IMG/VR virus record: IMGVR_UViG_3300045988_182320
DNA length: 39,937 bases
Reading direction: 5' to 3' (one strand)
DNA from: a virus
Taxonomy: Duplodnaviria; Heunggongvirae; Uroviricota; Caudoviricetes
A program made the translations under genes and the position numbers. The notes beneath the pieces are model-generated. The model was not told the DNA's origin, ran no database searches, and saw only the letters and a program-made list of their open reading frames with translations. Of this stretch, positions 2,101 through 28,448 are shown piece after piece. Numbering within the stretch: position 1 is the first letter of the stretch; every line of letters starts with the position of its first letter.

Positions 2101-2726
2101 AGTGCTTTGTCCTCCTTGACTTCTTCTGTAGGTGTATATTCCAAGAGCTGTTCGTCGTAGTCCTCGGCCTCGATCTTGACGAGATCCATGGAGTTGTCGG
2201 TGTATTTCTTGACGAGCTTCTTGATGGTCTGCATCACGTTAGGGATGCGCTTGAGACCCAAGTGTCGTGGGTCGGTGGTAGGGATGAAGACCTGAGGCTG
2301 AATCTGGTCGTAGCCGTTGTCGGTAGGATCCTCTTTGTCGAGCAGGTGATATTTGCCGTATGCAGCTGCGGCGGCAGCCATGGCTCGGGCATCGCCCATG
2401 GAGTCGGCCTTGTCGTAGGTGCGCTGTATCATCTGGTCGAAGCGATAGCGGGCGAAGTCTTTTGACACTTTTTGCAGGTTGCCCAATATGAGCTTGATGA
2501 GGTGCAGGTCGTTGTAAGCCATCATGCGCTGCACCTTGTAGTCGTGCATATCTTTATAGACCAGCTCTTGGTCGCTCTTGCGAGGGTTGATGAGCCACCA
2601 GGCATAGAGGGCACGGATGCGCAAAATGCGGTCGCGCACTGGGGCGGGCACATTTTGCGCATCCATCTCTTCGGGTGTGCGGTCCATCAGTTCGATGATG
2701 GCATCGATGTTGGCGGGTTCTCTCAT
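2097..2726 (-). CDS. Hypothetical protein; possible terminase small subunit by position only
   Basis: 209 aa; ATG at 2724-2726; 4-nt overlap with terL start; no diagnostic motif recognised. Confidence 0.3.
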   Translation of the reverse strand: MREPANIDAIIELMDRTPEEMDAQNVPAPVRDRILRIRALYAWWLINPRKSDQELVYKDMHDYKVQRMMAYNDLHLIKLILGNLQKVSKDFARYRFDQMIQRTYDKADSMGDARAMAAAAAAYGKYHLLDKEDPTDNGYDQIQPQVFIPTTDPRHLGLKRIPNVMQTIKKLVKKYTDNSMDLVKIEAEDYDEQLLEYTPTEEVKEDKAL

Positions 2727-3004
2727 ATTCTAATCTCCTCTAACATTTGGTTCAGATATTCGTGTGTGCGCTGCACCGCCTGTGGCGAGCCAGCCGCAGC
2801 CAGGTCTAGCTCGTTTTTGCGTATCTGCTGGCGCACCGTCGCCATGCCCAAGTAATAGACACGGTGAAGCTCGGAGTCGGGCTTCAGTATCTCGTCACGC
2901 AGATCGTCCTCGCTAATATCCAAAAGGACGGACATCTCGGATATCGGAGTCAACGTCTCCGCGAAGTCTTGCACTTTTTTGAGTAATTCCTGAGAAATTT
3001 CCAT
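2723..3004 (-). CDS. Hypothetical small protein
   Basis: 93 aa ORF with ATG start, overlaps neighbours by 4 nt (operon-like coupling). Confidence 0.4.
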   Translation of the reverse strand: MEISQELLKKVQDFAETLTPISEMSVLLDISEDDLRDEILKPDSELHRVYYLGMATVRQQIRKNELDLAAAGSPQAVQRTHEYLNQMLEEIRI

Positions 3005-4952: not shown

Positions 4953-6056
4953 TTACTCCTTGCCCTCATCGTCAGTGTCGCTTGAAGACGTATCCACTGG
5001 GTCGCCACTGGCAGTGTTGCTTGCAGCCTCTGCGAGCGAAGTCTTCTGGATGAGCGGTGTGGTACCATCGTTGGTGATGACAAGAAGGCGCTCTTTGTTG
5101 ATGCTCTCGTACTGGCAGCCGAAGAACTTGGTGGCGATGAAGTCGAGCTTCCAAGGGTGGTATTTTTCCACGCTGATCTTCTCCTCGTCGCTGTTGTTTG
5201 CCTCGTTGACACCCACGAGCATGTTGTTGCGAGTGGTGAGCTGGAAGAATGGCGCATTCTTCTTGTTGACGAGCGGTACCATCTCTACGTTGTCGAAGCC
5301 CTCGATGGTGTTGTGGTTGTAACCTGTATTGTATGGCACATTGCCAAACTTTTTGAGGTAGTTGCGGTTGTAGAGGTTGATGAACGCCTGTGGCACGTAG
5401 AGATAAAGCTTCTCTTCGCCAATCAGCTCTTCGTCAGCCGACTCGCAGATGGCCTGAGCGAAGTCAACGGCGTTGTCGTCGCTGATGGAAGCGTCGCTGC
5501 CCAGAATGTCTGAGACCTTGATGAGGTTGCCGAGTTCGCTAGACAGCTTGGCATTGGTCAACTCAGTCTTGGCGATGGTATCGAAACCATTGAAAAGGTC
5601 TTTTGAACCCTTGCCCTGGTCGTTGCGCACGGCATCGAAGAGGTGGAGGTTGAGATTCTTGCCCAGCTTGAGCGCAAGCAACTGCAGCACCTGAAGGGTG
5701 ATTGGCACGTTCTTAAGCGCTTCGCCATTCATGGCGTTGGCACCCCAGATAGTGGAATAAACCGAGTTAGGGGAGAACTTGATGTCAACGTTGCCGAGGT
5801 ACACCTGCAGGGTACGAGGTGTAATCTTAACGCCACCATCGCCCACACGGTTCTCGTCGTATGGACCGAGCTCAGCGTTGCCGAGCAACTCGCCCACGGT
5901 CTCTGAAACTCTGATGCCCGGGCGCAGGGTCATATATTTGAGCGACTGAGCCAAGCCCTTTGTCGGCATCGTAATCAACTGCGAACGGTAAGTTTTCGCA
6001 GTGTTCTGCAGCTGTACATCGACATCTGCAGGCGCAATGAATTTATTATCTGCCAT
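4953..6056 (-). CDS. Putative major capsid protein
   Basis: 367 aa ORF starting 2 nt after the protease/scaffold gene; assignment is positional (protease-scaffold-capsid order), no motif-level proof. Confidence 0.5.
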   Translation of the reverse strand: MADNKFIAPADVDVQLQNTAKTYRSQLITMPTKGLAQSLKYMTLRPGIRVSETVGELLGNAELGPYDENRVGDGGVKITPRTLQVYLGNVDIKFSPNSVYSTIWGANAMNGEALKNVPITLQVLQLLALKLGKNLNLHLFDAVRNDQGKGSKDLFNGFDTIAKTELTNAKLSSELGNLIKVSDILGSDASISDDNAVDFAQAICESADEELIGEEKLYLYVPQAFINLYNRNYLKKFGNVPYNTGYNHNTIEGFDNVEMVPLVNKKNAPFFQLTTRNNMLVGVNEANNSDEEKISVEKYHPWKLDFIATKFFGCQYESINKERLLVITNDGTTPLIQKTSLAEAASNTASGDPVDTSSSDTDDEGKE

Positions 6057-6057
6057 A

Positions 6058-7083
6058 TTATGCGAACTGATTTAAAGCATCCAACACTTGATCTGAGCAG
6101 AAATCCTCGACCTTGGTGTCATCGACAGCAGTGTGCGTGTCGCCACCAGGCTCTCCCTCCAGATCCTTCACTTTATCCTTCAGGTCATCTCTCTCCTTTT
6201 CGAGATTCTTGACCTGAGTCTCTAACTCCTTCTTCTCATCCTTGACCTTCTGAAGCTCTGTGTCTTTGTCGGTCACGGCCTTGGAGTCGGCAGCAATCTT
6301 ATCCTCCAGCTTCTGCATCTGCTCCTGAGAGATGGTGCAGTCCTTGGCTGAATCCTCTGCCTCAATGCCCTCGATGTTGAGGACATTGTTGATGTGAGTC
6401 CATTTTTTAATCATATTAATAATTTTGTTTTGAGATTTATCTTTACCGAAAATTCGGTCGATGAAGCTTGGCTTTTTATCATACCAAGAGTTGACGACCT
6501 CAGGGAGCACCGGAAGGTTGTTGTACTTGATGAAGTCTTGTGTCTGCTCTGTGATGTCAGCAGGTTTGCCATCCATGGACTCATCGACGAGACCCAGTTC
6601 GATGCACTCATCGACGGTGTGCCACTTTGCCTCGGACATCACCTTGACGATGTCCTCGTGCTTCTTGCCCGAGCGATCGCAGTAAACGTTGGCGATGATG
6701 TTGTCGATTTTCTGCTGGTTCTCTTGCTGTTTTTGAAGCTGCTCGATGAGCGAGCCTATCTGCTCCTCGTTGAGCGCAGACCACACAAACTGCTCGGTAG
6801 AGCACTTGTGTACCAGGAGCAAGCTATATTTGCTCATGCGAATCTTGCTGGCACCCATCGCACAGATGGTGGCAGCAGAGGCAGAGAAGCCCGCCTGGAA
6901 GTCAACGGTCACATCGCCATGGGACTTGAACATCTGGCAGATGGCGAGACCTGCGGAGACCTCACCACCCAAGGAGTCGATGGCAACATCGACGTGCTTG
7001 TCTTTGTTAGCCTTGAGAATGTCGCGGACCATGAGTTTTGTCCACGAGCCAATATATCCAGTGATAGAAATTTGGTACTTCAT
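6058..7083 (-). CDS. Prohead protease (ClpP/S14-like) fused to a coiled-coil scaffold-like C-terminus
   Basis: N-terminal IDSLGGEVSAGLAIC...GFSASAATICAMGASKIRMSKYSLLLVH resembles the ClpP Ser/His active-site regions; C-terminal half is K/E/D-rich coiled coil (KVKDEKKELETQVKNLEKERDDLKDKVKDLE). Confidence 0.8.
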   Translation of the reverse strand: MKYQISITGYIGSWTKLMVRDILKANKDKHVDVAIDSLGGEVSAGLAICQMFKSHGDVTVDFQAGFSASAATICAMGASKIRMSKYSLLLVHKCSTEQFVWSALNEEQIGSLIEQLQKQQENQQKIDNIIANVYCDRSGKKHEDIVKVMSEAKWHTVDECIELGLVDESMDGKPADITEQTQDFIKYNNLPVLPEVVNSWYDKKPSFIDRIFGKDKSQNKIINMIKKWTHINNVLNIEGIEAEDSAKDCTISQEQMQKLEDKIAADSKAVTDKDTELQKVKDEKKELETQVKNLEKERDDLKDKVKDLEGEPGGDTHTAVDDTKVEDFCSDQVLDALNQFA

Positions 7084-7106
7084 ATATCTTTGCGATTTTT
7101 ACGGCG

Positions 7107-7114
7107 CAAAGATA
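7107..7114 (-). promoter_or_regulatory. Bacteroidota-type -7 promoter box
   Basis: Plus-strand caaagata = minus-strand TAtcTTTG, 24 nt upstream of the protease start codon. Confidence 0.45.
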
Positions 7115-7143
7115 TATAATAATGTATAAGGATAAAAAAACTT

Positions 7144-7563
7144 TTATTGGATGATTTGGAGCGGTTTTATCACGTCAGACCATGTCACGGTATAAGTGAT
7201 GAGCGATGAGTCTGTGTGCGAGCTTGGCATATTTTCGGTGCGAGTGAGCACCGGGAAGGGACGCTGGTCTCTGCCCAGAAGATAGGCGCACCCATCGGCG
7301 GTAGTCACCTTGTAGGCGAGCGGGTGAACCTCTGAGTCTATCTGCTCGCTCGACTTGAAGGTGAGCTTTGAAGTGAAAATGCGAACCTTGGACTCAATTT
7401 TGTCGGTGATTTCACAACTCGACGGCATTTTGCACTTTATCTGCTGGAAGACTGCACTTGCAGGAATGATGCAAAGATTTTTGGCTGGGAAGATGACAGC
7501 CTTGAGGTCATCGGCTCTCACGACCTCAATCTTGATGATGTTTTTGATGTATGACATAAGCAT
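7144..7563 (-). CDS. Hypothetical protein
   Basis: 139 aa, ATG at 7561-7563. Confidence 0.4.
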   Translation of the reverse strand: MLMSYIKNIIKIEVVRADDLKAVIFPAKNLCIIPASAVFQQIKCKMPSSCEITDKIESKVRIFTSKLTFKSSEQIDSEVHPLAYKVTTADGCAYLLGRDQRPFPVLTRTENMPSSHTDSSLITYTVTWSDVIKPLQIIQ

Positions 7564-12933: not shown

Positions 12934-13311
12934 ATGTTTAATGGTCAGATAATCAGAAAGTTAATGTCGGATGCTGGCTTAACTAAAAAAGAGTTTGAAA
13001 GACGTATGTTCGGTAGTAAATCGACCGACCTCAACCATTTGGAAAAAGCGAAGAATCTTCGCAGTGACACTCTCGAACGTCTGCGTGAGGTGTTGAAGTG
13101 CTCTATGGATGACTTCTTTACAGCACCCTCATGGGCTGAGAACGGAAAGGGGACAGTCGTAGGCTCTAACAATGTGCTGTCAACAGTAGCCATCGGCAAC
13201 GAAGTGATGGAAGCCCAATATCTCAAGGAGTTGCTCTTGGAGAAGGACAAACGCATCAGCACTTTGGAAAATTATATCAAGCTTCTGGAGACTAACTTAA
13301 ATAAGGACTAA
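12934..13311 (+). CDS. XRE/Cro-CI-type helix-turn-helix transcriptional regulator (candidate repressor)
   Basis: 125 aa; N-terminal IIRKLMSDAGLTKKEFERRMFGS...SDTLERLREVL matches an HTH_XRE-like helix-turn-helix; divergent from the early operon and upstream of the integrase. Confidence 0.65.
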   Translation: MFNGQIIRKLMSDAGLTKKEFERRMFGSKSTDLNHLEKAKNLRSDTLERLREVLKCSMDDFFTAPSWAENGKGTVVGSNNVLSTVAIGNEVMEAQYLKELLLEKDKRISTLENYIKLLETNLNKD

Positions 13312-13535: not shown

Positions 13536-14699
13536 ATGACTGCAAAAGAAATTGATTTTTTGAGCTCGCGTGAAATAGTAGGTTTCACGCTGCCTGTGTT
13601 GCATACCAAGGGCGGTTACTGGTATGTTGACTTTACTGCCTTTGACCCTGTTTCGGGTCGGATGAAGCGCAAGAAATATATGCTTAATAGGTACAAGACT
13701 GACCACAAGAAGCGTATGATGGGTACCTTGCTTATCCACAATATCACGGCAAAATTGACCGCTGGATGGAATCCTTGGGTGAATGCCGACAAGTCGAGAC
13801 AATTCACCGAAATACCAATTATCTTTAGTCGTTATCGTGATTATATTAAGTCGATGACCGACAAAAAGTCGATGAAGGAAAAGACCTCTATCGACTACCT
13901 CAGCCGCCTCAAGACTCTGGAGTCTTTCATCACTGAGTGCAAGAGTGTCAAATATGCCTATCAGATTGACCGTGCCTTCGCCATCGACTTCTTAGACCAC
14001 CTGATGTATGACCGTGATGTGAGTGCTACCACAAGAAACAACTATCGCTCTTGGCTTGTCTCCTTCGGCACTTGGCTTATGGATAGAAAATATATCAGCG
14101 AGAACCCTGCCATCGACATCAGAAACATCGCTCAGAAGGAGAAGTTCAGAGACCCTTTGACCGAGGGCGCGCTTAAGAAGCTGAAGACTTATCTCTATGA
14201 TAACAACAGACATTTTCTCTTGGCTTGCCTCTTTGAATATTATACCTTTATCCGACCGAATGAGTTGACGCAGATAAGAATCAAAGATGTGTCGATTGCT
14301 GACCAGACGGTCTTTATCAGTTCTGCCATCAGCAAGAACCGTAAGGACGGACTTGTGGCATTGAACGATGAAATCTTGAAGCTCATGATAGAGCTGAAGA
14401 TATTTGAGCATCCGGGACATTGTTTTATCTTTGGCAAGGGGTTGAAGCCTGGTGAGGAGCGAGCACCTTATAACCAACTGAGAGTAGAGTGGGGCAAGAT
14501 GCGAGATGCTATTGGGTTTCCGAAGGAGTATCAGTTTTATAGCCTGAAGGACACTGGCATCAGGGATTTGGCGAACGCACAGGGTATCGTGGTCGCCAAG
14601 GATCAGGCACGCCACTCTGATATATCTGTGACGAATCGATATATCAAGAACCAGATGAAAGTGAACGAGGAGACCAAGCACTTCAAAGGTGGGCTTTAG
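13536..14699 (+). CDS. int: Tyrosine site-specific integrase
   Basis: 387 aa; C-terminal ARHSDISVTNRYI (His and catalytic Tyr box) and upstream HCFIFGKGL region typical of phage tyrosine recombinases; stop tag at 14697-14699. Confidence 0.85.
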   Translation: MTAKEIDFLSSREIVGFTLPVLHTKGGYWYVDFTAFDPVSGRMKRKKYMLNRYKTDHKKRMMGTLLIHNITAKLTAGWNPWVNADKSRQFTEIPIIFSRYRDYIKSMTDKKSMKEKTSIDYLSRLKTLESFITECKSVKYAYQIDRAFAIDFLDHLMYDRDVSATTRNNYRSWLVSFGTWLMDRKYISENPAIDIRNIAQKEKFRDPLTEGALKKLKTYLYDNNRHFLLACLFEYYTFIRPNELTQIRIKDVSIADQTVFISSAISKNRKDGLVALNDEILKLMIELKIFEHPGHCFIFGKGLKPGEERAPYNQLRVEWGKMRDAIGFPKEYQFYSLKDTGIRDLANAQGIVVAKDQARHSDISVTNRYIKNQMKVNEETKHFKGGL

Positions 14700-16688: not shown

Positions 16689-19600
16689 TTATTTGTTTGA
16701 CTTCATTTTTTGATATTGGCTCCATTGGCGGTCGAAGCCATCGGGGCCGGTGATGACCACGTATGACTTGATGCCAGCATCGAGCTGTTGGTTGAGTCGG
16801 TCGATGGTGTTATGCACGCTATCGAGGGATGCGCCCATCTGTTCGGTGTCGCCACCTGTGACGTTGACCACTGGGGCGACCACGGCTGCGCTGCCTGTGC
16901 CCATGGCACGGCTCACGTCTTGTGCGGTGAGCGAGGCGACAGTGTTGTTGCGCTGCGCCATATCGATGAGCTGCAGGGCAGGGAGGAGCTGAGGATTGTT
17001 GACGGCGTTGTGGTTGGCGACGAACTCGCCAGCGTGAACCACGCCAGCCTCTTTCTTGTAATTGCCAGGACCAGTGAAACCACCCTCGTAATAGCCAGCC
17101 GCCTCTGCCTGGTGCTGCTTTTTGATTGTTGCTATCTGGAGCATGCCCGCTGCGGTGGCGAGACCTGCGGCGATAGGACCAAGGATGTGACCCACCACTG
17201 GGATGGCTGCGGCTGATGAGTAGGCGTTGATGGCAGCCATGGCGGTTGAAGCTATGGCTTGTGCGATCTCTATCTTCATCGCCTTTTTGTTGGCCTTGCT
17301 CTTGGCTGCAGCCACCTCTTTGTCTCGCTTCGCCTCGAGTCGCTTTTTCTTGGCTGAGTTGTTGCCAGCGGCAGAAATCTGCTTATCGTAGTTTTTCTCG
17401 ATCTTGGCGACCTCTAGGTCTGAGCAGGCCTGAGAGTAGGCGGAGGCAGCGCCCATCATCGTGTTGATGCTGCTGAAGGCAGCGCCAGCGATGGAGGCTA
17501 TCTCTTGATAGGTCTCTTTGTTCATCTGCTTTTTGGCATCTAGATAAGCCTGTTCGCTGATGTTGCCATCTCTACGTAGCTTGTCTAGATTATCGTTGAC
17601 CATCTTTTGCTGTTGGATGGCTGCGATGGCACCACCTGCGATTGTGGCGAGGTTGTCGCTGCCCATGGCATTACTGTTGTCGCCGTTGCCCTTGGTCATC
17701 TTTTTGGCGGTGTCGAGGGCGGTGTTGGCATCCTCTTTGCGCTGCTCGTCGGCGGTAGGCTTGTATGAGGCGTATTTGTTGGCGATGCCCATCTTTGTGC
17801 GCTGGTATTCCTCCTCTCTGATGAGACCTGCCTTGTAGATGGCTTCGAGCCCCTGCAGCTCTAGTTGCATCTGCTCTTCGTTGCCGAGCTTGCCGTATTC
17901 TTGGCGCAGCTGAAGGAGTTGTTCGTCGTGTTGCTTCTGAAGGTCGTATTTGCGTTGCTGTTGGGTCAGCTCTCGCTCTTTCTCGATCTGGGCGTACTCG
18001 TCAGATGAGGAGAGGTAGAGGGCTTGCTTTTTGTTGAGATAGTCCTGGTATGAGAGAAAGAGAGCCTCGTTGACGGCATCCTCATTGTGATAGAGGTTGG
18101 AGTCTTTGTTGTAGTAGTCTGCATTGAGCTTCATTTCTTTTTTCTGTCGCTCGGTCTCCAGGGCTTCGAGGTCGGCGGTCTGCTTCTTCTCGTAGTCGGC
18201 GGCGATATTCTCTTTCTCGGCGCTCAATCGCTTGTACTCTTCGCTCTCTGCCTCGCCATACTTTTTGAGGATGTCGAGGCGAGCCTGAAGCCCCTGCTCT
18301 TTGATATTCTTCATCTTCTCGTTGTATTCGGCGAGTCGAATCTGCCCCGTAGCGTAGAGTGTCTTGGCATCTAGCTCTTCGGCTTGGTTGGCTTTCTTGG
18401 CATCGTCTAGCTCTTTTTTCATGTCGGCCTTGCGCTTTGCCTCTGCCTTGCGAGCCGCAGCCTCACGCTTCTTTTTCTCCTTCTCGGCAGCCTTGCGCTC
18501 TTTCTCGGTCATGGTATGACCAGAGGAAGGGGTGACGGGTGTCTCAGTAGTTGCGCTATTGTTTAGTAAATTCTTCTTTACAGTCTTGTTGTACTGTTTC
18601 TGTAAATTAACGTTTTTCTCTAATTGCTGATTATAGAAATTCTCTTCAGCATTGACTTTTTTTTGCAGGCTTAGGTTTGCCTGTAGTCTTTGCGTATGAA
18701 TTTGCTTTTGCTTCTCGTTGCTCTTCAGTGCCTCGTTTTGTTCGATGAGCTGACCTGTCCATCCATCAGCCACGGCATTGCTCTCATATTGCTTAGGATG
18801 AGCCTTGCGCTCAGCATCGACAGCCTTCAGAGAATATCGTATGCGGCTCTCTTTTTGTTTGAGTTTCAGTTTCTTTTTATTGATTTCCACTTTGCGTTCA
18901 TAGATAGCTTCTGCCATGGCAGCATTCTCTAGCTCCTTGATGTAGTTTTGGATGGCAATCTGATTGTCGTTATACAACTTGCCCTCTTTGGAGATAGAGG
19001 CGTGATATTCTGGGACGAGCTTTTGCATATTTGCGATAGCTTGCTTGCGCTCGTCAACGGTATAGGCATTGGAGTGGATAACCTTGTTGAGCATATCGAC
19101 CTTGTTGCGCTCATCGAGGGTAGCATCAGACACTTTTTTGGCGAGGCTGGCTTGAGCCTCTGCCACAGCTCTGTTGTTTTTAGCCTCTTGCGTGTTGTTG
19201 CGCATCGCCTCATTGTAAGATGTTATGGCTTTGTATGCCCCATAGGCAGCCACGCCCACAACGGTGATTACCGTGGCGAGGGCAGCCCATGGATTGGTGA
19301 GACTGGCTAGGCGTGCCGCCCTCATCACCACGATGTAGCCCTGTATGCCTTTTGTGAGATAAGCCCATGTGGCTTGCAGTGCCACTAAGGCAGCACGCAA
19401 AAGGGTAGAAGTTGCAGCACAAGCTTTATCGACAGCTGAAGCGTATTGCACAGCGGCAGATTTAATCTTAATAGCGATTGTCTCCTTGTACCAGAGAGTA
19501 GTACAAACAGCGATGGCTGTTGACAGCACGGCTATTTGTTTGGCATAGGTGACGGTGAAGGTGATGAGTGTGGACATGACCTTTATAGTCAGGCTGAACG

Positions 19601-21035
19601 ACGTGATGCCATATTTCATGGCAGGGATGAGTTTCTCGCCAAGTTCGATGGTGAGGTCTTGGAATCGCTTCTTGGCCTTGTCTAGCTCTGCCTGAACTGT
19701 TGTGTTTTGGGTGTTGAACTCATTGAGCACACTGGTACCATCGGCATAAGACTTGGTGGCGATGTCTTGTGCCTCCCTAACTTGGTCGAGGTGTGTAGCT
19801 ACGGCGGAGAGCACGCCCACGGCACGGGTACCGTTGAGCTGCATCTCTTCGAACATCGGTGCCATCTCTGTGAAACCTCCCTTCGACTTCATCGCTTGCA
19901 TGAACTTCATCAAGCCCTCGTTGGCGTTGGTCTTCATCAGGTTGGAGAACTCCTTGACCTGCATGCCCGCTATCTTGGCAAACTTGGCTGGCTCTTGGTA
20001 CATTTTTGTGATGAGCTGTGAGAAGACTGTGGCGGAAGTCGCCTCCTCTTGCATGTTTTGGTCGAGGGCAGAGGCGAGACCCATCAGCTGTGCCTGGGTC
20101 ATGCCGGCCTGGATGCCGACACCTGAGAGGTCGGCGGTGAAATCGACGATGTAGCCAGCGTTTGCAGATGAGCTTTGTGCCAGCTCATTGACGGCGGAAC
20201 CTGTGGCGAGCATCGCACCACGAAGGCCTTTGGTCTTATCCTCACCAAACATCTGGGCGAGCTTGCCGATTTTATCGACCGCCCCCTTGCCGAGGTCATC
20301 GCCGAGGGCGACATTGATTTTGTCGGCACCATCAACGAACTCCTCGATCATCTCTTTGCTGGTGATGCCGAGGCGACCGGCAGAGCCAGCCAGCTCGTTG
20401 AGCTGCTCACGAGCTGTGCGGGTATCCATGCGCTTGAAGTCCTCGTTCATCTGATGAACCTGTTCGTCGGTCTGACCGGTGTATTTGCGCACGTCTGCCA
20501 TCGACTCCTCCATGTCGGCATAGGCTTGGGCTGCAGCTCTCAAAGTAAGAGTGAGTGTGGTGAGACTGCCCAGTATCTGGGTGAAGGCACCCCAGTTTTT
20601 GTTAAGACCATCCCACATTCTAGAGAACAAACTTCTGGAAGCTTTACCTTCGTCGTTGATGTGCTGCATCTCTGCTCGCACTTGCTTTAATTGCTTTTGC
20701 AGTTTTTTCCATTCGTCTGAGTTGCGCTTGATGGCACCGCTTTTCAACTCTCTGTTGAGAGCCTTGGCGACTAGTTGCAGCTCCTTGTATGATGCAGAAG
20801 AAAGATTGTTGAGAACTTGGTTAACCTTCTCTTGGCTAGTCATGTATGCTTTTGTCTCAGCCTTTAATCTCTTTATCTGTCGTTCGAGGGCTGTTGTTGA
20901 CTCGCCCTTAGCATAAGCCTCGTCTCTGGCTTTTTGCACTTCTTTCAGCTTGTTTTGCAATTCGTTGAGTTTATCCTTAGCCTCTTTGGTGTCAAGAATA
21001 ACTCTGCTAACATGGGTATCTGTATTTGTTGCCAT
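16689..21035 (-). CDS. Tail tape measure protein (putative)
   Basis: 1448 aa; long K/E/A/Q-rich coiled-coil stretches, central hydrophobic segments, Gly-rich C-terminal region (GGFTGPGNY...GVVHAGEFV); ATG at 21033-21035. Confidence 0.7.
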   Translation of the reverse strand: MATNTDTHVSRVILDTKEAKDKLNELQNKLKEVQKARDEAYAKGESTTALERQIKRLKAETKAYMTSQEKVNQVLNNLSSASYKELQLVAKALNRELKSGAIKRNSDEWKKLQKQLKQVRAEMQHINDEGKASRSLFSRMWDGLNKNWGAFTQILGSLTTLTLTLRAAAQAYADMEESMADVRKYTGQTDEQVHQMNEDFKRMDTRTAREQLNELAGSAGRLGITSKEMIEEFVDGADKINVALGDDLGKGAVDKIGKLAQMFGEDKTKGLRGAMLATGSAVNELAQSSSANAGYIVDFTADLSGVGIQAGMTQAQLMGLASALDQNMQEEATSATVFSQLITKMYQEPAKFAKIAGMQVKEFSNLMKTNANEGLMKFMQAMKSKGGFTEMAPMFEEMQLNGTRAVGVLSAVATHLDQVREAQDIATKSYADGTSVLNEFNTQNTTVQAELDKAKKRFQDLTIELGEKLIPAMKYGITSFSLTIKVMSTLITFTVTYAKQIAVLSTAIAVCTTLWYKETIAIKIKSAAVQYASAVDKACAATSTLLRAALVALQATWAYLTKGIQGYIVVMRAARLASLTNPWAALATVITVVGVAAYGAYKAITSYNEAMRNNTQEAKNNRAVAEAQASLAKKVSDATLDERNKVDMLNKVIHSNAYTVDERKQAIANMQKLVPEYHASISKEGKLYNDNQIAIQNYIKELENAAMAEAIYERKVEINKKKLKLKQKESRIRYSLKAVDAERKAHPKQYESNAVADGWTGQLIEQNEALKSNEKQKQIHTQRLQANLSLQKKVNAEENFYNQQLEKNVNLQKQYNKTVKKNLLNNSATTETPVTPSSGHTMTEKERKAAEKEKKKREAAARKAEAKRKADMKKELDDAKKANQAEELDAKTLYATGQIRLAEYNEKMKNIKEQGLQARLDILKKYGEAESEEYKRLSAEKENIAADYEKKQTADLEALETERQKKEMKLNADYYNKDSNLYHNEDAVNEALFLSYQDYLNKKQALYLSSSDEYAQIEKERELTQQQRKYDLQKQHDEQLLQLRQEYGKLGNEEQMQLELQGLEAIYKAGLIREEEYQRTKMGIANKYASYKPTADEQRKEDANTALDTAKKMTKGNGDNSNAMGSDNLATIAGGAIAAIQQQKMVNDNLDKLRRDGNISEQAYLDAKKQMNKETYQEIASIAGAAFSSINTMMGAASAYSQACSDLEVAKIEKNYDKQISAAGNNSAKKKRLEAKRDKEVAAAKSKANKKAMKIEIAQAIASTAMAAINAYSSAAAIPVVGHILGPIAAGLATAAGMLQIATIKKQHQAEAAGYYEGGFTGPGNYKKEAGVVHAGEFVANHNAVNNPQLLPALQLIDMAQRNNTVASLTAQDVSRAMGTGSAAVVAPVVNVTGGDTEQMGASLDSVHNTIDRLNQQLDAGIKSYVVITGPDGFDRQWSQYQKMKSNK

Positions 21036-23631: not shown

Positions 23632-24039
23632 TTAGACCTCTCTTGAGAGAATCTCCTTGGCTATCTCTTTGGCCTCTTTGCGCCACGACTGATAAGCCTC
23701 GAACTCTGCCTCGTGAGTCTCGTCGCCATCGCCACGGTTGGCTAGGATGGCCTCTACCTGGTTTTGGCTGTATCGGGTGCGAACCAAACCAGCGGTGAAA
23801 TCGTCGTAGGTGGCTGCGGTCGCCTGAATCTTGGTCGAGCCATCAGGCTCTGTGCCCTCATAGCTGTAAGCAGTGACACCCTCGGAGTTTTCATCTTCTG
23901 ACTGCTCTGAGGTATCGGAAGAGCCTGTAGCGGCCTCAGGGTGATAGTTTTCAACTTTCTGCTCACCAGTGTAGAGCAGATAATGGTTATCGTCATATTT
24001 GACGAAGCTCTTGCGAGCTAGATAATACTTCTTGTTCAT
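23632..24039 (-). CDS. Hypothetical acidic protein co-transcribed downstream of the reverse transcriptase
   Basis: 135 aa, ATG at 24037-24039, only 6 nt after the RT stop; D/E-rich, not Avd-like. Confidence 0.45.
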   Translation of the reverse strand: MNKKYYLARKSFVKYDDNHYLLYTGEQKVENYHPEAATGSSDTSEQSEDENSEGVTAYSYEGTEPDGSTKIQATAATYDDFTAGLVRTRYSQNQVEAILANRGDGDETHEAEFEAYQSWRKEAKEIAKEILSREV

Positions 24040-24045
24040 AATTGA

Positions 24046-25620
24046 TCACGTGAATTTATAGAACTTCTTTTTGAATTTATTGTGAAGCTCTGCGACCACG
24101 GTGGAGAAGGGTAGCTCATCACGACAGAAGTCGTTGAGGGCTTGGTCTATCAAGATCTTGGAGCCTGTATAGAGGTAGTGCTCCAGAGGTTGCCATACCT
24201 CGGTGCCGTCTGGCTCCAGGTGGTCGATGATGCGATAGCGTAGGGAGAGGCGCTTCTTGGGCACCTCTTTGGTGACCATGTGGGTGGAGCCGTCCGGGGC
24301 GGTCTCCTCTTGCTGGATGGTCTCCTTCTCTATCACCGAGTCATCGACCTTGTAGTCTATCACTTGAACGAGGAACTTGTTCTCGTCCTGACCCTCACGG
24401 CAGATGATGTCCTCGATGGACTGCTGCTGTGATTTCTCCATACCGTCAAAAGGCACGCGCGCACGGCGAGCCTTGACGAGTTTACCGAATCTTTCCATAC
24501 CGATTTTCTTATATAAGTTTTTAGAGTTTGCGTGGATGCCCAGACCTAGGCGAGAGGCTGCCTTGAGCTGTATCTGGCGGTCTGTGAAGCCCGCCTTGCG
24601 TAAGTTGGCGATCTGTCTGCAGAGGTCGTGCTTGAACCGCTTGCGCAACAGGGCGTGGTCGGCGTAGATGATCTGACCGCAGAAGTCGATGCCATCGCAG
24701 GTGCGGTGGATACCCCAAGACTTATTGATGGATAGGTGCCAGTCACGGGCGAGGTGCATCACGGCAAGCTCTGCCATCAGCCTGAGGAACACCTTATCCT
24801 CGTGGAGGATGTAGATGTTGTCCATGAAGCGGTAATAATGGCGAAGACCTTGGCGGCAGAAGCGCTCGAACCTATCGTTGAGCGACTTCACTCCCCCGCA
24901 TAGCAGTTGAGCTTGCTGCTGAGTGCGACAGGTAACGAGCATGTCGATCACGTAGCGAGCCTGCCAGTAACGGAACTTGTCGGTGTCTTGGAGAATGTCG
25001 AAGCATCGGAGTGCCAGGTAATCGAAGCGGGCGAGGAAGAGCTGACCCAAGAGTTGGGCGAGCTTGACGCCGAGCACGATGCCTGGATTGAAGCTATCGA
25101 CCACCTCGTCGATGAAGGCGAGGAGCTTGCGGTCTTTGATCTTGCGGCGATATTCACTTTTGAGAAGAGCGTGGTCTATGCTCTGAAAATAATGGTGAAT
25201 ATCCATGGGCAAGCAGTAGAAGGTATCTTGCTGTGGCGAGTTGAAGATGTCTCGCTTGACAAGATTATAGAAATAATGGGTGCCCTTGCCCTTGGAACCA
25301 GCCGGACTGTGGCTGTAGAGTGTCTTGCGAAGGTTATCCTCTACAGGTTGCAGGGCAGCGTGCTGGATGACGTGGTCGATAACGGGCAGCTTGTTGACTT
25401 GGCGATGTTTTGGATAGTCGATATCTTTGGCGACATAGGCTGAGGTATGCCAAGTTTGTTGGGTGTAAGCATCGAGCATGCGTCCGATGTTATGGTCTAG
25501 GTTTGCCTCGAATTTTTGGACCGCACGGCGAGACATCTTTTGTCGGGCGTAGTCATAGAATGCCCGACGAAAGTTGTCTAGTGTCTCGACCTGTGGCGAT
25601 ATGTTGCCAAACCTTTTCAT
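24046..25620 (-). CDS. Reverse transcriptase of a diversity-generating retroelement
   Basis: RT motif A LPMDIHHYFQSIDH; motif B-like GIVLGVKLAQLLGQLFL; motif C position reads YYRFMDNIYIL (non-canonical); primer-grip-like DFCGQII; adjacent to the TR/VR pair. Start placed at first ATG 25618-25620; the track ORF begins with GTG at 25689. Confidence 0.8.
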   Translation of the reverse strand: MKRFGNISPQVETLDNFRRAFYDYARQKMSRRAVQKFEANLDHNIGRMLDAYTQQTWHTSAYVAKDIDYPKHRQVNKLPVIDHVIQHAALQPVEDNLRKTLYSHSPAGSKGKGTHYFYNLVKRDIFNSPQQDTFYCLPMDIHHYFQSIDHALLKSEYRRKIKDRKLLAFIDEVVDSFNPGIVLGVKLAQLLGQLFLARFDYLALRCFDILQDTDKFRYWQARYVIDMLVTCRTQQQAQLLCGGVKSLNDRFERFCRQGLRHYYRFMDNIYILHEDKVFLRLMAELAVMHLARDWHLSINKSWGIHRTCDGIDFCGQIIYADHALLRKRFKHDLCRQIANLRKAGFTDRQIQLKAASRLGLGIHANSKNLYKKIGMERFGKLVKARRARVPFDGMEKSQQQSIEDIICREGQDENKFLVQVIDYKVDDSVIEKETIQQEETAPDGSTHMVTKEVPKKRLSLRYRIIDHLEPDGTEVWQPLEHYLYTGSKILIDQALNDFCRDELPFSTVVAELHNKFKKKFYKFT

Positions 25621-25828
25621 AAGCGGTGTAATGTCTGTGTTGAACGGTGTATAAACTGTGTATAGTCTGAATCGTCTGCTTTTGTACACTTGATAACCTT
25701 CGACCGGATGACCGTGTTGTCATCATCTACCAGCTGTCTTATTAATGTGTATGTATCGCCATGGGGCGAGGATTGACCCTGTAATCTCGAAGTGGGAGCA
25801 AACGACCCACGAAGAGATATGTCTGTAA

Positions 25829-25950
25829 GTTGAGGGCGGCGCCGTAGTTCACATTGGCATTCGAGACAGCATTGTTCACGTTGAGCGTCGAAAGACCGCA
25901 TTGACCACCATTGTTAGCGTTAGCACCACGAAGGCAGACACGAAAACCGG
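25829..25950 (-). repeat. DGR template repeat (TR)
   Basis: 122-nt intergenic copy of the target gene 3' region; 110/122 identical to VR; every mismatch is a plus-strand T in TR, i.e. a coding-strand adenine; the same-frame translation carries Asn (AAC) where the VR varies. Confidence 0.85.
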
Positions 25951-25984
25951 CACCTAGGGTCACACCCTGGTATCATAACCGCCG

Positions 25985-25992
25985 CAAAGGTA
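25985..25992 (-). promoter_or_regulatory. Bacteroidota-type -7 promoter box upstream of the TR
   Basis: caaaggta on plus strand (TAccTTTG on minus), about 35 nt upstream of the 5' end of the TR in the direction of TR-RT transcription. Confidence 0.45.
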
Positions 25993-26188
25993 ATAAAAAT
26001 AATCGGTATGGAAGCATGTCAAAGAGCTTTTTTGATGTTTTTATTGATATTTTTTTTGTCGCCGACCGCCACAGGCGGTAACTTAAGGCGAGCTACGCTC
26101 GCTGGGTGCTTCGGCTTCGCCGAGGGTGCTCAGGTCTCTTTTGCACACCCAGTAAACCGATGCACACCCAGCAAACTGATGTAGTCTT

Positions 26189-27661
26189 TTAGGCCGCCTC
26201 GTAATACACGGGTTCAACGGACCACTCGGATGCTGCTTCGCAGAGGGCGGCGCCGTAGTTCACATAGGCAAACGAGACAGCACCGTTCACGTTGAGCGCC
26301 GAAAGACCGCAAGGACCACCATTGTCAGCGCTAGCACCACGAAGGCAGACACGAAAACCGGATGTAGCGCCGCTAGTATTCCAGAAATAGCTAGTCCAAT
26401 AGGTTGACTCGGATGCGCCCGTGGCGGTCGGGAAGTTCTCCAGATGCTCCATCGAGAGCGTCTTGATAAAGCCTTCGCCCTTGGTCGGCGAGGTGCTGTA
26501 AGCCACCATGCCATCGGCGGAACCTATCGTCCACGTGCCGTAGATGGACGGTGCCACGAGATGGGTCACGGAAGTGTCCTCGTTGCAACGCACCTGCTCG
26601 TCATCCATGTGTCGCCACAATAAGCCGAAGCCATTTTTGTAGCCGAAGAAGGATGGTATCTTGGCGGTATAGACCACGGTGCCATCGTCTTTTTTGACCT
26701 CGTAGCTCGCCTCGCCGCAAGCGTCGCCCAGCTCGATGCCGGCAGACATCGGCACGATAGGGCGATAGCCGTTGTAACCACCCCAATCAGGCATCTGTGT
26801 CACGCCAGCTCCGAGACCACCCTGGTAGAGACCGTTGGCATCTTTTTGGCTGTTGATGGCATCCTGGTCGTAGTGGGTGCCGAAGATGACCCCGAAGAGC
26901 ACGGCGATGGCAGAGGTGTGGCGCATGGTGGTGCAGAGCCAGCCTGTACCATTCTTGCGGGCTGCGGCACGCCAGTATTCGGTAGTCTGGTTGGTGGCAG
27001 CCTTGCCCAGCATGGTGCGGTTGGTGTTATCTAACGTTGAGTCGTTGTTGCCGCCTCGGTAGTCTGTGCCCTCGTTGATGTAGCTCACCAGCTTGCCTGT
27101 GCTGCGCTCTAGCGTGGCGAAGCCAGCGGCGGAGATGCTGCCCACAGGTATCTTGTAGTTGTACTCGCCAGGTATTGGCGTAGGGCTGACCATCTCGTAA
27201 TGGAGTCTGCCCACGGTCTTGATGACCATGTACCACTCCTTGCCCCAGCCCCACTGGTAATGCCCCTCTGAGCCATCGAGCTTGGCTGTCTCGCCGGTGG
27301 CATACTTGTGGTGGTCTTTGGAGTCGAGCTTGCGACGGGAGTGGTCATTCTTGACCAGATAACAGCCCAGACCCAGCTCCGTTGGTAGGGTCTGCAGTAA
27401 CTCTAGCGAGCCCACATAAGTGGCGGCTTTAGGGGTTGCATTGTCGAGGTTCCACACTCGACCACACCAAGGATGCTGTCCCATTTGGACGGCGCTTTTG
27501 AGCGACATCTGCTCAGACCTGCCGGATTTTTTGTCGAAGACCTCGACAATCTTGTCAGTGGCGCTCATGTCTGACTGTGGGAGGTCGTCAACCTGTTGAC
27601 CTCCATCGAAAGCGGCTATGATAGCCTTGAGCTTACTCTCTTCTTCTGATGTTAATGCCAT
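26189..27661 (-). CDS. DGR target protein (putative receptor-binding tail fibre) with C-terminal variable region
   Basis: About 490 aa from ATG 27659-27661 (MALTSEEES...; track ORF starts with TTG at 27709); C-terminus ...GFRVCLRGASADNGGPCGLSALNVNGAVSFAYVNYGAAL is encoded by the VR; stop tta at 26189-26191. Confidence 0.8.
   Translation of the reverse strand: MALTSEEESKLKAIIAAFDGGQQVDDLPQSDMSATDKIVEVFDKKSGRSEQMSLKSAVQMGQHPWCGRVWNLDNATPKAATYVGSLELLQTLPTELGLGCYLVKNDHSRRKLDSKDHHKYATGETAKLDGSEGHYQWGWGKEWYMVIKTVGRLHYEMVSPTPIPGEYNYKIPVGSISAAGFATLERSTGKLVSYINEGTDYRGGNNDSTLDNTNRTMLGKAATNQTTEYWRAAARKNGTGWLCTTMRHTSAIAVLFGVIFGTHYDQDAINSQKDANGLYQGGLGAGVTQMPDWGGYNGYRPIVPMSAGIELGDACGEASYEVKKDDGTVVYTAKIPSFFGYKNGFGLLWRHMDDEQVRCNEDTSVTHLVAPSIYGTWTIGSADGMVAYSTSPTKGEGFIKTLSMEHLENFPTATGASESTYWTSYFWNTSGATSGFRVCLRGASADNGGPCGLSALNVNGAVSFAYVNYGAALCEAASEWSVEPVYYEAA
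26240..26361 (-). repeat. DGR variable repeat (VR)
   Basis: 122 nt inside the last ~57 codons of the target gene; differs from TR only at 12 positions corresponding to TR adenines (TR 25830, 25831, 25855, 25860, 25861, 25872, 25873, 25888, 25901, 25902, 25915, 25920). Confidence 0.85.
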
Positions 27662-27683: not shown

Positions 27684-28448
27684 TTAAACAATGCGTAATT
27701 TATCACCAACTTTTCTAAGCTTGCCCGATGCCGACAGGCGAAGGCGAGGCTGGCGCACGGTGATGCTGACCTCTTGCCAGAGCGGTGTGTTGGCGGTGGG
27801 GATGACCCAGAACTTGGTGGTGCCCTCGCCCTTGATGATGAGGTTGCCGCTTGGGTCTGCCACGAGCGAGTCGCCCTCGGCTCGCTGGAAGAGCACGCTC
27901 TGAGGGAGGTAGCTCGGCAGGATCTGCACGGCGATGCGCTGAGCCACCTTGTTGCGTAGGCTTATCTCGGGGAGATAGGTCAGGTTCATGCGAGCTGGCG
28001 CGATGAAGCCTGTGGTTATCTGAGCGGCGAGACCATCCATCTGCGCTATCTTGGCATCGGCTCGCTTGGATGCCGCGTCAGCCTCTGCAGCCTTGGTCTC
28101 TGCCAAGGCTGCCTGTGATGCTGCAGCCTCGCCCTGCTCGCCAGCCGCCTTGGCTGCGCTCTGGGCGAGGTTAGCCGCCTTGTTGGCATCGTCGGCCGCA
28201 CCCTGCGCTCTGACGGTCGGTGTCTTGTCGAGCCACAAGCGCCACTTGGCGTTGGTATCTGAAGGAGTCGTCGTGTTGCCATCCTCTAGGGAGGCGAAGA
28301 CTCCTGACGATGTGTGAACGATGTCGCCCTCGTCGTAGCCCTTGACGGTCTGGCCATCCTCATCTTGATAGGAGTAGCCCGACTGCCAGGTGCCCTGGTC
28401 GGTGAAGGCGACATTGCCCACGATAATGATGTTTGTGTTATCTGCCAT
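27684..28448 (-). CDS. Hypothetical protein (tail-fibre region), Ala-rich central coiled coil
   Basis: 254 aa, ATG at 28446-28448. Confidence 0.45.
   Translation of the reverse strand: MADNTNIIIVGNVAFTDQGTWQSGYSYQDEDGQTVKGYDEGDIVHTSSGVFASLEDGNTTTPSDTNAKWRLWLDKTPTVRAQGAADDANKAANLAQSAAKAAGEQGEAAASQAALAETKAAEADAASKRADAKIAQMDGLAAQITTGFIAPARMNLTYLPEISLRNKVAQRIAVQILPSYLPQSVLFQRAEGDSLVADPSGNLIIKGEGTTKFWVIPTANTPLWQEVSITVRQPRLRLSASGKLRKVGDKLRIV

Follow-up and report, generated by a model that had tools for sequence, protein, structure and literature searches.

Can a diversity-generating retroelement (DGR) work when its reverse transcriptase (RT) carries an asparagine in place of a catalytic aspartate and no accessory protein Avd is found nearby? 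This question is raised by positions 24046 to 27661 of IMGVR_UViG_3300045988_182320, a 39,937-nt sequence of a Caudoviricetes virus (hereafter the window), where a tail-protein gene, a template repeat (TR), and an RT-like gene follow one another on the minus strand. A first-pass annotation, made from the sequence alone, had read the region as a DGR with the order target gene with variable repeat (VR), TR, and RT. This reading is supported by the adenine signature of the repeat pair, the DGR lineage of the RT, and the C-type-lectin fold of the target. We estimate a probability of roughly 90% that the region is the functional DGR of an approximately 44-kb temperate Segatella/Prevotella phage, rewriting the tip of a tail protein.

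Pairwise alignment of the direct repeat, which was found where it had been annotated (25829-25950 and 26240-26361, offset 411 nt), gave 12 mismatches over 122 nt. All of them fell on a plus-strand T of the TR, that is, on an A of the minus coding strand, and no mismatch was found off the TR adenines. With 24 adenines in the 122-nt TR, the hypergeometric probability of this arrangement is P = 2e-10. The first-pass annotation had counted all 12 mismatches as diversified sites, which holds for the ten inner ones. The two outermost (25830/25831 in the TR, 26241/26242 in the VR) belong to a codon that reads AAC in the TR and TGC in the VR, and in relatives this codon is fixed as TGC in all VRs, where it encodes the conserved Cys of LCEA, and as AAC in nearly all TRs. 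Because they are constant across relatives, these two differences lie outside the transferred tract. The tract thus comprises 119 nt on the minus strand, with the TR at 25832-25950 and the VR at 26243-26361 (target residues 434-473), and ten of its ten mismatches coincide with its 22 adenines (P = 6e-9).

The peptides given previously for TR and VR were correct on translation. The proposal that the Asn codons of the TR are the diversified positions was mostly right: all 22 adenines fall within 12 codons, nine of which are Asn codons (AAY), and the remaining three are Gln CAA, Thr ACG, and Tyr TAC. As read from the sequence, no adenine substitution in these 12 codons can lead to a stop codon. 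The GC-rich block GGCGCCGCCCTC is indeed common to TR (25832-25843) and VR (26243-26254), after which the repeats diverge. No further match to the TR was found anywhere in the window, so the element has a single VR.

The RT-like gene, correctly placed directly downstream of the TR, occupies 24046-25620 on the minus strand and encodes a 524-residue protein of the DGR lineage. The start codon was set to the ATG at 25620 because of the alignment with bRT, the RT of phage BPP-1, the lengths of the homologues, and the overlap of a GTG-start extension with the RNA element RT-17 described below. The expected match to RT profiles was obtained in part: Pfam returned no RT hit, but the DGR-type core aligned with bRT and the structure is bRT-like. 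In this alignment, the bRT segment RYMDDIVVL stands opposite RFMDNIYIL, so the second Asp of the YxDD box (bRT D216) is replaced by Asn (N268), and the canonical box is absent. The enzyme has kept the Asp of motif A (D140), that at the first motif C position (D267), and the fingers Arg corresponding to bRT R74, PKHR here being aligned through its Arg with KPR of bRT. The DGR signature motif 4, [I/V/L]GxxxSQ (PMC7826257), is present as LGVKLAQ. Its L, G, and Q are invariant in an alignment of 29 related sequences (A1), and its Ser is Ala in the subgroup of the window and Ser in other clade members. The bRT cryo-EM paper names D138, D215, and D216 as catalytic aspartates and places a cation at 2.2 and 2.3 Å from D138 and D215 (10.1101/2023.10.23.563531), and both cation-contacting aspartates are retained here. 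From these contacts, the conservation, and the activity signature, we infer that an enzyme with Asn at the D216 position can still work. Two further parts distinguish the protein, a helical insertion at approximately residues 205-257 and a C-terminal domain (386-524) that is acidic (pI 5.25), beta-rich, and conserved as strongly as the core. For the latter, neither a homologue outside these RTs nor a PDB sequence match was found.

For comparison, loci L001-L160 were assembled from viral contigs and bacterial genomes, with TR candidates restricted to the region upstream of the RT. The box RFxDN was present in 115/115 loci whose RT is 33-100% identical to that of the window, and RF[M/A/V]DN was invariant in A1, which reaches down to 37% identity. 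Since it is invariant across the clade, the Asn in the catalytic box is not a private lesion of this phage. The RFxDN loci came from viral contigs and from Segatella, Prevotella, Phocaeicola, Bacteroides, Rikenellaceae, and Duncaniella genomes, and they formed a monophyletic clade in a neighbour-joining tree. The nearest relatives outside the clade reached at most 31% RT identity, were mostly about 320-400 residues long, and carried the canonical RY[A/M/C/V]DD. Clean TR/VR pairs were recovered from 96 of the 115 RFxDN loci, and 1055 of their 1080 mismatches fell on a TR adenine. The share of TR adenines changed in the VR was 50% in the RFxDN clade (1006/2018) and 71% in the RYxDD relatives (547/767), and the substitution spectrum (G > T > C) differed modestly between the two groups (chi-square p 6e-4), both comparisons being confounded by selection and relatedness. 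A change of about 50% of the adenines is also the density given for BPP-1 and Bacteroides DGRs (10.1101/2024.11.15.621889).

Close relatives of the window offered a view on recent change. Five phages that are 95.6-98.8% identical to it over 8.7-13.5 kb had an identical TR (122/122), while their VRs differed from that of the window at 11-16 positions, almost all of them TR-adenine sites. In a collection of 15 billion proteins, the exact target sequence occurred on 2 contigs; the exact flanking proteins of 254, 280, and 135 residues occurred on 311, 370, and 453 contigs, respectively, and the exact RT on 32. When 13 members of the 90% cluster of the target were compared, columns with 4-8 alleles occurred only at residues 444-468, inside the VR, and at most 3 alleles per column were seen outside it. 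The RT is under strong purifying selection, with a dN/dS of approximately 0.05 against L004 and 0.12 against L027. An invariant TR with diverging VRs, near-unique target sequences, and a selected RT argue that the cassette is active, and mutagenic retrohoming is apparently ongoing.

These data also bear on the simplest alternative, namely that no retroelement is involved and that an ordinary duplication or gene conversion between copies met with a chance bias among the bases. Beyond the existence of the repeat, nothing speaks for it. The adenine bias recurs in 96 related loci, the repeat adjoins an RT with a bRT-like structure, the target has a C-type-lectin fold, and the adenines are laid out such that stop codons are avoided. 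With the local P value, the clade-wide bias, and the invariant TR facing divergent VRs, this explanation is effectively refuted.

With the retroelement established, the next issue is which proteins serve it. VR and TR are separated by 238 nt in the window and by 159-379 nt in the clade as a whole, too little for an avd gene, and no Avd-type Pfam hit was found among the 24 small open reading frames (ORFs) of the window. Avd is present in approximately 70% of DGRs and not universal. Two candidates for a disguised Avd found no support. The C-terminal domain of the RT, acidic and beta-rich, does not resemble a fused Avd, which would be a basic helical bundle. An ORF of 125-160 codons that ends just before the TR in RYADD loci (for example L119:5398-5793, L121:5322-5789, and L125:762-1148) had no Pfam, NCBIfam, or PDB-profile hit and holds a second VR at its 3' end, so it is more likely a small second target gene. 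Separately, an acidic helical ORF of 93 residues adjoining the terminase genes (2723-3004, minus strand) matched cytochrome b562, which is a four-helix bundle, below the threshold (E 0.006) and is not Avd-like in charge or position. A strongly acidic ORF of 135 residues directly after the RT (23632-24039, minus strand) had no Pfam or PHROG hit and could be either a neighbour that is conserved or an accessory factor that has so far escaped recognition. The DGR appears to work without Avd, and the positioning that Avd assists in BPP-1 would here fall to an RNA scaffold, to the extra domains of the RT, or to both.

Alternatively, diversification could happen in trans, with a canonical, Avd-assisted DGR RT elsewhere in the phage or host copying the TR and the RFxDN protein having a different function in RNA binding or regulation. 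Action in trans on remote targets is on record for DGRs (Wu et al. 2018, as referred to in PMC8632793), Bacteroidales commonly carry canonical DGRs, and roughly 4 kb of phage DNA as well as the entire host genome lie beyond the analyzed sequence. However, synteny of TR, RT-17, and the RFxDN RT holds in every locus and their architecture is constant, the RT has preserved the Asp of motif A and the first Asp of motif C together with the fingers Arg and DGR motif 4, and no other RT is encoded in the window. A foreign enzyme would moreover have to recognise this RNA in many different hosts, and we regard the scenario as very improbable. The RT encoded in the cassette, with Asn for the second Asp of YxDD, is probably the enzyme responsible for diversification.

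Upstream of the TR, the sequence TAccTTTG (25985-25992, minus strand) corresponds to a Bacteroidota-type -7 promoter box; TAnnTTTG, which is the Bacteroides -7 promoter consensus, preceded the TR by 23-61 nt in 54 of 55 distinct loci as compared to 2.8% of random 80-nt windows. This conserved box points to a transcript dedicated to the template. Just 5' of the TR, the strand GGGTGTGACCCT (25956-25967, minus strand) can pair with AGGGTCAATCC (25770-25780, minus strand), which overlaps the first bases of RT-17, and the resulting long-range helix encloses the TR. In 22 distinct sequences aligned by sequence anchors, 94.6% of the cells were paired and 8 of 11 pairs were compensatory; these values were reached by 0 of 500 shuffles, and slid controls gave 28-60%. 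Between the TR and the 3' strand of this helix lies a post-TR hairpin (25784-25818, minus strand) with an outer stem ATCTC/GAGAT, an inner stem GTGGG/CCCAC, and a loop containing GTTTGCT. Across loci of 47-100% RT identity, at least 11 different stems close the conserved loop GT(T/C)(T/A)G(C/T)T. The hairpin was scored per sequence, as indels had caused it to be overlooked in the MAFFT/RNAalifold alignment.

The structured element of the spacer between TR and RT is the RNA RT-17 (Rfam RF03020; 25672-25773, minus strand), matched over its full length (model positions 1-95 of 95) with 59.9 bits against a gathering score of 40.4. Of 11 RFxDN loci and 11 RYADD Bacteroidota DGR loci sampled, 7 and 5, respectively, had RT-17 at the same place between TR and RT, and 6 of its 11 predicted pairs were compensatory (RNAalifold, 23 sequences). 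Between RT-17 and the start codon of the RT, four copies of (T/A)ACAC(A/C)G are spaced by 10-11 nt (25624-25662, minus strand); across the clade, the array ACAC(C/A/T)G has mostly 2-4 copies with a spacing of mostly 11-12 nt. Such a spacing, close to the helical repeat, points to an array for protein binding or an element that controls translation. The invariant tail of RT-17, AAAAGCAGAC (25672-25681, minus strand), shares the hexamer AAGCAG with the VR flank TGCGAAGCAG (26233-26242, minus strand), which may be a coincidence or may connect the RNA with its target site. Folding of single sequences was no more stable than that of shuffles, both for the whole TR-spacer RNA (z = +1.4) and for the DNA downstream of the VR (z = -1.6), and the RNA structure emerged from the comparative analysis only. 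The TR is flanked by structured RNA, as in the cis-primed reverse transcription of BPP-1, and by this analogy the RNA may have a role in reverse transcription here as well.

The target gene (26189-27661, minus strand) encodes a tail-module protein of 490 residues. The 506 residues annotated previously have to be corrected: an in-frame TTG lies at 27709, upstream of the start at 27661, and the homologues are 490 residues long. The C-type-lectin fold anticipated near the C-terminus was found, with the VR inside it, while the protein had no Pfam hit. The target is probably a receptor-binding protein with a role in host binding.

At the 3' boundary of the VR, the shared GC block is followed by the VR-only sequence TGCGAAGCAG, and together they form a candidate initiation of mutagenic homing (IMH) element (26233-26254, minus strand). 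The VR-only motif can fold as a small hairpin, CTGC-GAA-GCAG (26233-26243), and the flanks are each conserved throughout the clade, with CCTC being followed by TGCGAA(G)CAG in the VR and by AAC(T/A)(T/A) in the TR. The flank TGCGAA(G)CAG doubles as the code for the conserved Cys-Glu-Ala, so that selection at the nucleotide level is not proven. The combination of GC block, VR-specific flank, and hairpin may act as an IMH-type 3' boundary. Directly 3' of the target stop codon, two tandem 19-nt units, TGCACACCCAGTAAACCGA and TGCACACCCAGCAAACTGA (plus strand), were observed at 26142-26179; beyond them, the minus strand holds GC-rich hairpins and an A-run.

Taken together, a mechanism can be proposed in which the cassette's own promoter drives a non-coding RNA that would comprise the 5' helix strand, the 119-nt TR, the hairpin, the 3' helix strand, RT-17, and the ACAC(C/A)G array, and that probably runs on into the RT mRNA. 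Primed in cis from the spacer, as we suppose, the encoded RT would copy the TR into cDNA and misincorporate opposite adenines. This cDNA would then be substituted for the VR in the 3' end of the tail-protein gene, transfer ending on its 3' side at the GC-rich block beside the VR-specific flank and hairpin. In this way, 12 residues on the C-type-lectin surface would be randomised without ever creating a stop codon, presumably retargeting host binding; by our own count, approximately 3e12 protein variants (15^9 x 5 x 4 x 4) are possible. A further proposal, which in our judgement is as apt to fail as to hold, is that the RFxDN clade forms a mechanistically distinct, Avd-independent DGR subtype, in which one motif C Asp suffices and the RNA scaffold (the long-range helix, the post-TR hairpin, and RT-17), the RT insertion, and the C-terminal domain take over the template positioning that Avd assists in BPP-1. 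In bRT, a low catalytic efficiency has been connected with adenine mutagenesis (PMC7826257), and for this reason the exchange of Asp for Asn could in its own right be adaptive, adjusting rate or fidelity.

Several points weigh against a functional element of this kind. An Asn at the second catalytic Asp is unexpected for an RT, given that the bRT paper calls all three aspartates catalytic. No Avd was found, although BPP-1 needs Avd for cDNA synthesis; about 4 kb of the phage lie beyond the window, and Avd proteins diverge so widely that one could escape a profile search. With regards to priming, no convincing spacer complement to the TR 3' flank CTCAAC(T/A)(T/A) was found by eye as template:primer duplex. 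The stem of the VR-flank hairpin has only 4 bp in the window, while it is a perfect 8 bp in L098/L099. The receptor-binding role of the target rests on the PHROG label 'tail protein', the fold, and the neighbouring genes, and the evidence for activity consists of comparative data. Moreover, in several close relatives (L062, L066, L068-L071, L073, and L088) the longest RT ORF spans only 283-348 residues (RT at approximately 6001-7540), which could reflect a frameshift, a pseudogene, or an assembly error. In these relatives, the tblastn match covers the whole RT except in L068 (residues 242-514), and TR and VR appear intact wherever found.

Some of these points would suit a relic cassette, in which the exchange of Asp for Asn inactivated the RT and the differences between TR and VR are fossils. 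The second Asp is held to be catalytic, the RT escapes the Pfam model, some relatives have broken RT ORFs, and in L021, L092, and L097 only 43-67% of the TR/VR mismatches fall on TR adenines, unlike in the rest of the clade, so these three may be decaying cassettes. Fossils, however, would gain non-adenine differences, and yet such differences account for only the small remainder of the clade's 1080 mismatches. A dead enzyme is also hard to reconcile with a DN box that is invariant over a monophyletic clade spanning 33-100% identity, with the strong purifying selection on the RT, with an identical TR beside differing VRs among phages 96-99% identical, and with target sequences nearly unique to each contig. 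We therefore consider a relic highly unlikely and retain an active DGR as the reading of this locus.

How does the element compare with known systems? The BPP-1 DGR is ordered mtd, avd, TR, Sp RNA, and brt, whereas the window cassette has no Avd. Its RT is 524 residues long in contrast to 328 in BPP-1, to which it adds the helical insertion and the acidic beta-rich C-terminal domain, and its catalytic box is RFMDN and not RYMDD. The spacer RNA is RT-17 in place of the RT-10 of BPP-1, the 5' strand of the long-range helix is non-coding and not part of the 3' end of avd, and the template RNA has a promoter box of its own, unlike in BPP-1. In enclosing the TR, the helix resembles the avd:Sp 'cPRT Stop' duplex of BPP-1; the three phyla with RNA predictions shown in that structural study exclude Bacteroidota (10.1101/2023.10.23.563531).

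Avd-less DGRs were surveyed by Wu et al. 2018 (PMC5758913), where Architecture A has a share of 29%, Lineage 3/3A is found in Bacteroides and relatives with Lineage 3A restricted to them, and roughly 20% of the RTs in DGRs bear C-terminal extensions of up to about 150 residues. Like the window, these elements have a TR-RT core with the target upstream and no accessory gene, so the absence of Avd and the C-terminal extension of the RT are not new in themselves; the main text of that survey mentions no variant catalytic box, RT-17, or long-range helix. The short Bacteroidota relatives with RY(A/M/C/V)DD have TRs of 61-122 nt (median 76 nt) as compared to 119 nt here. Hankyphage p00, crAss LMMB, and the Bacuni phages, the latter encoding an Avd (PMC8143477), are likewise gut Bacteroidales phages that diversify tail-associated proteins, but their RTs match that of the window only over the core, with an identity of 29% at most. 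The known proteins closest to the target are the Thermus aquaticus protein TaqVP (PDB 5vf4) and the 'domain group 2' variable proteins of Bacteroides prophages (10.1101/2024.11.15.621889), with which it shares only 17% sequence identity and from which it differs in the N-terminal part. Receptor binding is presumptive for these proteins as it is for our target.

RT-17 has been listed as one of 19 orphan motifs next to RT genes without an assigned system (Weinberg et al. 2017, PMC5737381). In that work, only RT-10 was tied to a DGR, in the TR-RT spacer of BPP-1, and further RT motifs were speculated to be DGR-linked. Here, RT-17 is located in the TR-RT spacer of Bacteroidota DGRs with RFxDN as well as RYADD boxes, and the preceding hairpin and long-range helix are absent from the Rfam model. 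In the searchable literature, with supplementary alignments outside the search, we found no account that assigns RT-17 to DGRs, reports the long-range helix from Bacteroidota, or describes a DN catalytic box in DGR RTs, which is no proof of novelty. Catalogues of DGRs in gut phages of Bacteroidetes hosts are extensive (Roux et al. 2021, PMC8144416), and the loci of the clade are probably contained in such catalogues already.

Around the cassette, the window codes for a terminase, a head protease, an integrase, a helix-turn-helix (HTH) protein, a tape measure protein, and an amidase. All cassette genes lie on the minus strand, and the main plus-strand genes are the integrase (13536-14699) and a Cro/C1-type HTH protein (12934-13311). 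A protein of 1448 residues with a tape-measure-like PHROG match (16689-21035) is encoded downstream of the lysis genes, which is an unusual order. RT relatives at 87-88% identity sit in Segatella copri isolate genomes, and near-identical IMG/VR contigs measure approximately 44 kb. Judged by its gene content and relatives, the source is a temperate phage of this size infecting Segatella/Prevotella.

With its TR/VR signature, RT lineage, motif 4, target fold, RNA structure, and comparative signs of activity, the element is functionally a DGR that has neither the YxDD box nor Avd. The DGR itself is ordinary; noteworthy are the clade-wide variant of the catalytic box in an apparently active Avd-less element and the RNA architecture. 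To our knowledge, nature offers no system of targeted protein hypermutation other than DGRs, and we know of no mechanistic insight into them beyond that gained from one Avd-dependent element with a YMDD RT. The RFxDN clade is large, shows clear marks of activity, and occurs abundantly in samples from the human gut, the rumen, and other guts, yet pipelines that rely on Pfam would under-count it because it is invisible to the Pfam RT model. The orphan Rfam motif RT-17 gains a biological home as the spacer RNA of Bacteroidota DGRs, and a helix enclosing the TR, like the cPRT-Stop duplex of BPP-1, exists in this phylum as well. For the phage, the 490-residue target is marked as a likely host-range determinant of a prevalent S. 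copri phage group. The RFxDN clade offers a natural test of which DGR parts are essential and possibly a simpler chassis for engineered diversification: if an Avd-independent, DN-active subtype proves true, it would represent a compact single-protein DGR of interest for the engineering of targeted mutagenesis.

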